Both the position numbers and the translations under genes were made by a program. From a virus: DNA of 64,000 nucleotides. The DNA is taken from positions 32,001-96,000 of IMG/VR virus record IMGVR_UViG_3300017760_000001. The stretch is one strand, 5' to 3'. The first letter of the stretch is position 1. Each line of letters begins with the position of its first letter. The notes under the pieces were generated by a model. It searched no databases. It saw nothing but the letters and a program-made list of their open reading frames with translations, and was not told the DNA's origin. Shown here in pieces: positions 23,850-23,921 of this stretch.

Positions 23850-23921
23850 GCGGAATTAGTATAATGATTACATTAGGTGTCCAACCTAAAGATGGAGGTT
23901 CAAGTCCTCTGTTCCGCTCCA
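23850..23921 (+). tRNA. tRNA-Gly(TCC), atypical (short D-loop, G33)
   Basis: Cloverleaf: acceptor GCGGAAT/GTTCCGC, anticodon arm TTAGG-TGTCCAA-CCTAA, T arm GGAGG-TTCAAGT-CCTCT, U73, encoded CCA. Confidence 0.9.

Follow-up and report, generated by a model that had tools for sequence, protein, structure and literature searches.

Non-proteinogenic tRNA-Gly species and DNA modification that depends on Gly-tRNA are each already known. The former are represented by the NP1–NP3 tRNA-Gly(UCC) of Staphylococcus aureus, which act with Fem transferases on lipid II (PMC7826273, PMC3239215). The latter is represented by Mom of phage Mu, which converts adenine in dsDNA to 6-NcmdA with glycine taken from Gly-tRNAGly and accepts all host isoacceptors (PMC13219725), so that the enzyme does not need a private tRNA. 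A GNAT that acylates cytosine at N4 is already known in TmcA, which uses acetyl-CoA as the donor and tRNA as the substrate. The DUF4338/DruA family, which counts thousands of members in phages, has been called a GNAT domain (PMC10853773), and a homolog from phage S-SCSM2R, 56% identical to the ORF376 product described below, has been annotated as 'methylcarbamoylase mom' solely on the basis of structural resemblance (PMC12801897). In the searched literature, which was incomplete, neither a substrate, an activity nor a tRNA link of DUF4338 was found, and no paper was found that connects DUF4338 to either Mom or a phage tRNA-Gly. The union of a non-proteinogenic tRNA-Gly and Gly-tRNA-dependent DNA modification in a phage with a DruA-family enzyme, possibly with a cytosine target, was likewise not found there.

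The locus described here lies in the window, the whole 64,000-nucleotide stretch analysed, which corresponds to positions 32001-96000 of the complete genome (G000; 144,435 bp) of a marine T4-like phage. On balance, we regard it as probable that its tRNA-Gly is a ribosome-poor Gly-tRNA donor feeding a Mom-like enzyme, which possibly acylates cytosine in GC[C/T]. The gene belongs to a plus-strand island that separates gp23 from the tail-tube gene. C48C1, the cultured phage nearest by capsid, lacks the island, and there gp23 directly adjoins the tail-tube gene. At its head, a perfect sigma70-type promoter (21565..21593, TTGACA-17-TATAAT) precedes ORF376 (21619..22749), a DUF4338/DruA-family gene (PF14236, phrog_19197) with a predicted GNAT fold, present as a single copy in the genome and located 1.1 kb upstream of the tRNA. 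It is followed by ORF330 (22818..23810), a ParB-like passenger gene (phrog_2558; phrog_1033, E 3.5e-4). A second perfect sigma70-type promoter (12/12, TTGACA-18-TG-TATAAT; 23807..23836) overlaps the ORF330 stop codon and would drive the atypical tRNA-Gly(UCC) at the end of the island (23850..23921). The tRNA unit closes with an intrinsic terminator composed of a UUCG hairpin and a T-run (23933..23958), back to back with the gp23 terminator on the minus strand (23968-23991). This tRNA is the sole tRNA gene of the 144-kb genome. The slot between the DUF4338 gene and the tRNA is exchangeable: relatives hold a ParB-like gene, a GmrSD_N/HNH-like gene, an unknown gene or none, and ORF330 was therefore ruled out as a necessary part. 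As a separate observation, the slot is a gene-exchange hot spot (window 22818-23810; L005, L010, L029, L061, L062, L068, L076 and L083) occupied by several different genes of 170-450 aa, some with GmrSD_N and HNH matches, which are possibly nucleases that tell modified from unmodified DNA.

The 72-nt tRNA was called as tRNA-Gly(TCC) by ARAGORN and by Rfam RF00005 (48.1 bits, E 6e-8). The bacterial GlyRS determinants are G1-C72, C2-G71, U73, C35 and C36 (PMC9976931). These residues, together with G3-C70 and the encoded CCA, are intact, as the earlier note had read from the sequence, and the determinants are invariant across the alignment of G33 tRNA variants. Since they are retained, charging by the host GlyRS would be expected. 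The anticodon occupies positions 23880-23882 and is preceded at 23879 by the G that the note had reported at position 33 in place of U. The D-loop is the 5-nt AAUGA (23863-23867), in which the GG pair described as missing is indeed lost, with one G left. Consequently, neither of the canonical elongator features, U33 and the D-loop G18G19, is present, while the T-loop TTC is retained. The T-stem consists of G49·U65, G50-C64 and A51 (23896)-U63 (23908). The stems, all of which the note had described as pairing, include G·U wobbles at 7-66 and 49-65 and an unpaired U13/U22. The loop might instead be read with a shifted anticodon, GUC for Asp, but the stem register and the glycine acceptor identity rule this out. 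Codon-usage compensation as the sole role of the tRNA is also disfavoured, given that the main Gly codon of the phage is GGT (1559, vs 578 for GGA) and that only one tRNA is encoded.

As a control, we used 71 sequence groups of ordinary viral (phage) Gly-UCC tRNAs. Their D-loops are 7-9 nt long, with 7 nt in 50 groups and 8 nt in 17. The D arm had been described as about 3 nt short, which is correct relative to the 8-nt type, but the difference from the commonest, 7-nt type is only 2 nt. The D-loop GG occurs in 60/71 control groups and A51-U63 in 1/71.

These peculiarities recur in other viruses. A pattern scan of IMG/VR recovered 35 viral loci that share G33 and the 5-nt D-loop, and they comprise 11 distinct variants in which both features are found throughout, 100% of the stem cells are paired and three compensatory pairs occur. 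This alignment of homologs, which the note had proposed as a check, yielded conserved features with covarying stems and did not bear out local decay, which relatives with U33 and a normal loop would have indicated. The A51-U63 pair, likewise listed among the anomalies, is present in the window tRNA but is not invariant, as some relatives carry G51·U63, a likewise weak EF-Tu pair. In spite of a changing upstream gene, almost every G33 relative has a similar sigma70 promoter in front of it, and in most relatives a promoter and a terminator flank the tRNA gene. A blastn search of the tRNA against cultured phages gave no match. One locus, L210, has the same cassette but a U33 tRNA, which suggests that the G33 form was derived from an ordinary tRNA gene.

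The effect of the T-stem on EF-Tu binding was predicted from the published energy table (PMC3239215). The value for the window tRNA is -9.9 kcal/mol, compared with -10.8 ± 0.68 for bacterial Gly-UCC tRNAs and -9.5 for the staphylococcal NP tRNA (PMC3239215), and thus falls about 1.3 SD on the weak side of the mean for its class. The mean predicted energy of DUF4338-linked tRNAs is -9.56, versus -10.51 for unlinked ones. A G33 tRNA still decodes, at reduced or medium efficiency (PMC1991585). These predictions only partly support exclusion of the window tRNA from the ribosome. The earlier suggestion of a chargeable, non-ribosomal glycine carrier is accordingly upheld as to the carrier, for which the DUF4338 GNAT is the likely client, and is limited in its non-ribosomal part by the mild predicted energy and the decoding ability of G33 tRNAs.

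The tRNAs linked to DUF4338 degrade the ribosome-facing features in various ways, namely G33, an ACC anticodon, loss of the GG or TTC loops, or a missing D-arm. The ACC type constitutes a second class of tRNA-Gly with 69 loci in 23 groups (L095-L179 of IMG/VR, together with L337 of Mosig and L338 of HTVC008M). About half of its members have degenerate D- and T-loops, and many DUF4338-linked ACC relatives lack TTC. Although retrieved by pattern alone, ACC tRNA-Gly genes often have a DUF4338 gene to one side or the other at a distance of 9-1500 nt. In the Pelagibacter phage HTVC008M, an ACC tRNA-Gly is the only tRNA found. Some further tRNA-like genes were observed around these loci. In L047 (3994-4057), a 64-nt tRNA-Gly-like RNA that lacks a D-arm stands 600 nt after a DUF4338 gene, its Gly acceptor stem intact and its anticodon-like loop containing CCC; it was the only hidden tRNA mimic found in a search beside tRNA-less DUF4338 genes. 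In L014, the ACC tRNA-Gly that follows DUF4338 is itself followed, 750 nt on, by another tRNA-like gene (2905-2982), whose anticodon loop is irregular (ARAGORN '???'). In L095 and L097, which are large-phage contigs, an ACC tRNA-Gly stands beside a UCC tRNA-Gly without the D-loop GG, and the fragments contain no DUF4338 match; these pairs may have a different partner enzyme.

The association between the atypical tRNAs and DUF4338 is evident from several counts. Among loci with at least 2.7 kb of upstream and 1.5 kb of downstream flank, DUF4338 lies within 3 kb of all ten G33 tRNAs (10/10), as opposed to 0/47 for ordinary U33 loci. By sequence group, the odd tRNA-Gly genes (G33 or ACC anticodon, retrieved by the tRNA pattern alone) have DUF4338 within 3 kb in 9/26 cases and the ordinary ones in 1/71 (p=2e-5, a value that ignores relatedness and uses a control not matched by taxon). 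The pair persists through inversion, relocation, swapped order, spacings of 9-2600 nt and exchange of the middle gene. In complete cultured Kyanoviridae, tRNA-Gly is present in 14 of the 15 genomes with DUF4338 and in one of the 12 without it; the latter carry 1-24 tRNAs, and the exception is S-PM2, with 24. Of those with DUF4338, the two SAR11 phages have aberrant ACC tRNA-Gly, and the cyanophages have ordinary-looking UCC tRNAs. The coupling is not obligatory. Since S-B68 and several DUF4338 contigs have no tRNA-Gly, the latter at least nearby, and a G33 tRNA occurs in L079 without DUF4338, the tRNA is an accessory; this would be expected of an enzyme that host Gly-tRNA can supply as well. 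The L079 gene (3471-3542) directly follows an HD-domain-like ORF in an early-gene region, and DUF4338 is absent from its 36-kb fragment.

The linkage could also be explained if the enzyme used host Gly-tRNA and the phage tRNA merely topped up the pool for both the ribosome and the enzyme, with G33 and the short D-loop as tolerated drift. The intact cloverleaf, TTC loop and anticodon of the window tRNA fit this explanation, as do the small deficit in predicted EF-Tu energy, the medium decoding efficiency of G33 tRNAs, the ordinary tRNA-Gly of DUF4338-positive cyanophages and the U33 tRNA of the L210 cassette. Drift, however, does not readily account for a G33 that is invariant in 11/11 variants while the stems covary, nor for linked tRNAs that lack an entire D-arm or the consensus of both the D- and the T-loop, and a pool supplement for GGA would address a codon used far less than GGT. 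We therefore consider this explanation unlikely, although it is the strongest of the competing ones, and prefer a tRNA that serves as a glycine donor for the linked enzyme.

ORF376 passes the PF14236 gathering cut-off (42.9 vs 27 bits), and 48 of 50 homologs match the DUF4338 profile. Its structure model (pLDDT 87) adopts a GNAT fold. Among solved structures, Mu Mom (8bv8) ranks first at Z 9.0 (160 aligned, rmsd 3.7); 11 further GNATs, however, fall within 1 Z of it, and CoA-dependent GNATs tie with Mom. A Foldseek search with the model returned only weak GNAT rows, Mom not among them. At the sequence level, the Mom profile PF25680 had no match in the whole genome, hhalign of ORF376 against Mom gave a probability of 0.3%, and the HMM search did not find 8BV8. 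The 376-aa protein has the invariant motifs PxQPFG, GGKLL, TTSLYG and SQY, which differ from those of Mom, and the essential Mom residues R111, S124, D149 and R151 have no reliable residue alignment to it. Since all sequence and profile links failed, ORF376 was not filed as a member of the Mom family; from its modelled fold, it may nevertheless act like Mom. Its homologs are located among replication genes, beside DNA polymerase and clamp-loader genes. No other Druantia genes were seen in the island. Two DUF4338 matches each were observed in G018 and G025 (the contigs of L133 and L150) and in HTVC008M, which suggests paralogues.

A footprint in the restriction sites of the phage accompanies this gene. 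Across the whole genome, GCC overlaps every CCWGG (63/63), CCGG (9/9), CCATGG (7/7) and CCCGT (14/14), against a chance of approximately 0.26 per palindromic site. GGWCC, CGCG, GGTACC, TGCGCA, GACGTC, GTGCAC and GTCGAC are absent from the whole genome. G precedes CTCGAG (n=4) and CTTAAG (n=1) on one strand in each case, and the three CGACG sites each follow GG. According to the footprint, protection would fall on the C after G in GC[C/T]; the absence of GCCGCG and CGCGCC (expected 8.5 and 11) suggests that this is the middle C of GC[C/T]. The same GCC exception is found in all G33 relatives tested, although the sets of avoided sites differ, which favours a phage-encoded over a host enzyme. Among 15 long contigs picked by capsid, mostly fragments and including two near duplicates, the strict footprint is present in exactly the three with DUF4338 (15/15 agreement), whereas two contigs with a C5-methylase lack it. 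The tracking is imperfect elsewhere, as G061 and G063 have DUF4338 without the footprint, and C48C1 (L393-L395), which has neither DUF4338 nor tRNA-Gly, is partly biased towards GCC-overlapped CCWGG sites (25, against 8 without the overlap), perhaps because the island was recently lost or because a different enzyme is at work. The L079 contig was also observed to carry the GCC footprint (CCWGG 4/0, GGSCC/GGWCC 14/0). A degenerate restriction site is unlikely to lie behind the footprint, as several unrelated sites share the 5'-G exception.

These data bear on a second explanation, in which ORF376 passes the glycine of a private donor tRNA to an acceptor other than DNA, such as a surface glycan, a lipid or a protein, and the footprint is the work of a methylase that escaped detection or of some other gene in the same clade. 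GNATs that depend on tRNA are well established as modifiers of lipids, peptides and proteins (PMC13219725), ORF376 has no sequence link to Mom, and phage C5-methylases of TET systems are known to act on GC[C/T] (PMC8256090). No C5, Dam-type or N4/N6 methylase and no TET was detected in the genome, where PF00145 and PF12851 were not found and the ORFs contain no catalytic motif, although a very divergent methylase might escape detection; neither a C5-methylase nor TET was detected in the tested footprint-positive relatives. The agreement of the footprint with DUF4338 rather than with the C5-methylases in the 15 contigs, and the replication-gene neighbours of the homologs, also argue against a non-DNA acceptor, which we judge to be improbable.

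A counter-defence role appears slightly less probable again. Phage tRNAs that evade anticodon nucleases exist, and the window tRNA might resist or decoy such a host nuclease, as the earlier note had offered in its other branch; alternatively, the GNAT might be a TacT-like toxin acting on host Gly-tRNAGly to which the phage tRNA is immune. The strong dedicated promoter, a change adjoining the anticodon and the acetylation of Gly-tRNAGly by TacT are compatible with these ideas. However, the TacT determinants U73 and G71 are kept in the phage tRNA, nuclease evasion predicts neither the DUF4338 linkage nor the DNA footprint, and a replacement tRNA would have to decode well, yet the linked family loses its ribosome-facing features. 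A decaying pseudogene, an integration-site remnant or a sequencing error is very improbable, because the same features recur in 35 loci with fully paired stems, compensatory changes and a retained promoter and terminator, even if the Rfam score is below that of ordinary phage tRNAs (mostly 55-80 bits) and the gene borders a gene-exchange hot spot.

Taken together, we propose that the tRNA-Gly belongs to a phage system of two parts for modifying DNA, in which it acts as the glycine donor. The tRNA would be transcribed from its own strong promoter and, once charged by the host, would be steered off EF-Tu and the ribosome by G33, the lost D-loop GG and the weaker T-stem, as the energy predictions suggest. 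The linked DUF4338 GNAT would then move the activated glycine to a base of the phage DNA, by analogy with the action of Mu Mom on adenine. The acceptor would be the C after G in GC[C/T], probably through N4-acylation of cytosine in place of the N6-adenine reaction of Mom. Such a modification may shield the genome from host restriction enzymes while leaving the translational Gly-tRNA pool undrained. More tentatively, the pieces may form a self-supplied system in widespread marine T4-like phages, in which a ribosome-excluded tRNA-Gly supplies a DUF4338/DruA GNAT that places glycine on cytosine in GC[C/T], giving an undescribed DNA base. The proposal names a substrate, a donor and a sequence context for DUF4338/DruA and offers a testable, non-translational reason for phages to keep a single tRNA. 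If true, it would provide the first biochemical function for the DruA family and bring non-proteinogenic tRNAs, familiar from cell-wall synthesis in staphylococci, into the chemistry of viral DNA. Both parts are present in the cultured phages HTVC008M, Mosig, S-SSM7 and S-CAM9.

The locus shares individual traits with several known systems. Like Candida tRNA-Ser(CAG) (PMC1991585), the window tRNA has a natural G33 instead of U33; the Candida tRNA decodes, with G33 lowering its efficiency and leucylation, and G33 alone is thus no proof of exclusion from the ribosome. ORF376 resembles DruA in exceeding the Pfam cut-off of DUF4338 (PF14236), but no further Druantia gene was seen beside it in the island. 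The GpC[C/T] context and the presumed protective role are shared with the phage C5-methylase/TET/glycosyltransferase systems (PMC8256090), whereas neither the methylase nor TET was detected in the genome or in the tested footprint-positive relatives. The resemblance to the S. aureus NP1-NP3 tRNAs (PMC7826273, PMC3239215) comprises the glycine identity, A51-U63, weaker predicted EF-Tu binding and a proposed donor role for a GNAT-fold transferase. In contrast to those tRNAs, which have TGC/TGT T-loops, the window tRNA is phage-encoded, keeps TTC and has G49·U65, G33 and a 5-nt D-loop; its predicted loss of EF-Tu affinity is milder, and its partner is DUF4338 with DNA as the proposed acceptor, in place of Fem and lipid II. 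With phage Mu Mom (PF25680, PDB 8BV8; PMC13219725), the system shares a phage-encoded GNAT fold, predicted in the case of ORF376, Gly-tRNAGly as the presumed donor and restriction evasion as the presumed purpose. ORF376 differs from the 241-aa Mom in its length of 376 aa, its invariant motifs and the lack of detectable sequence or profile similarity. Whereas Mom draws on host tRNA and modifies adenine, the phage described here encodes a dedicated tRNA, and its footprint points to cytosine in GC[C/T].
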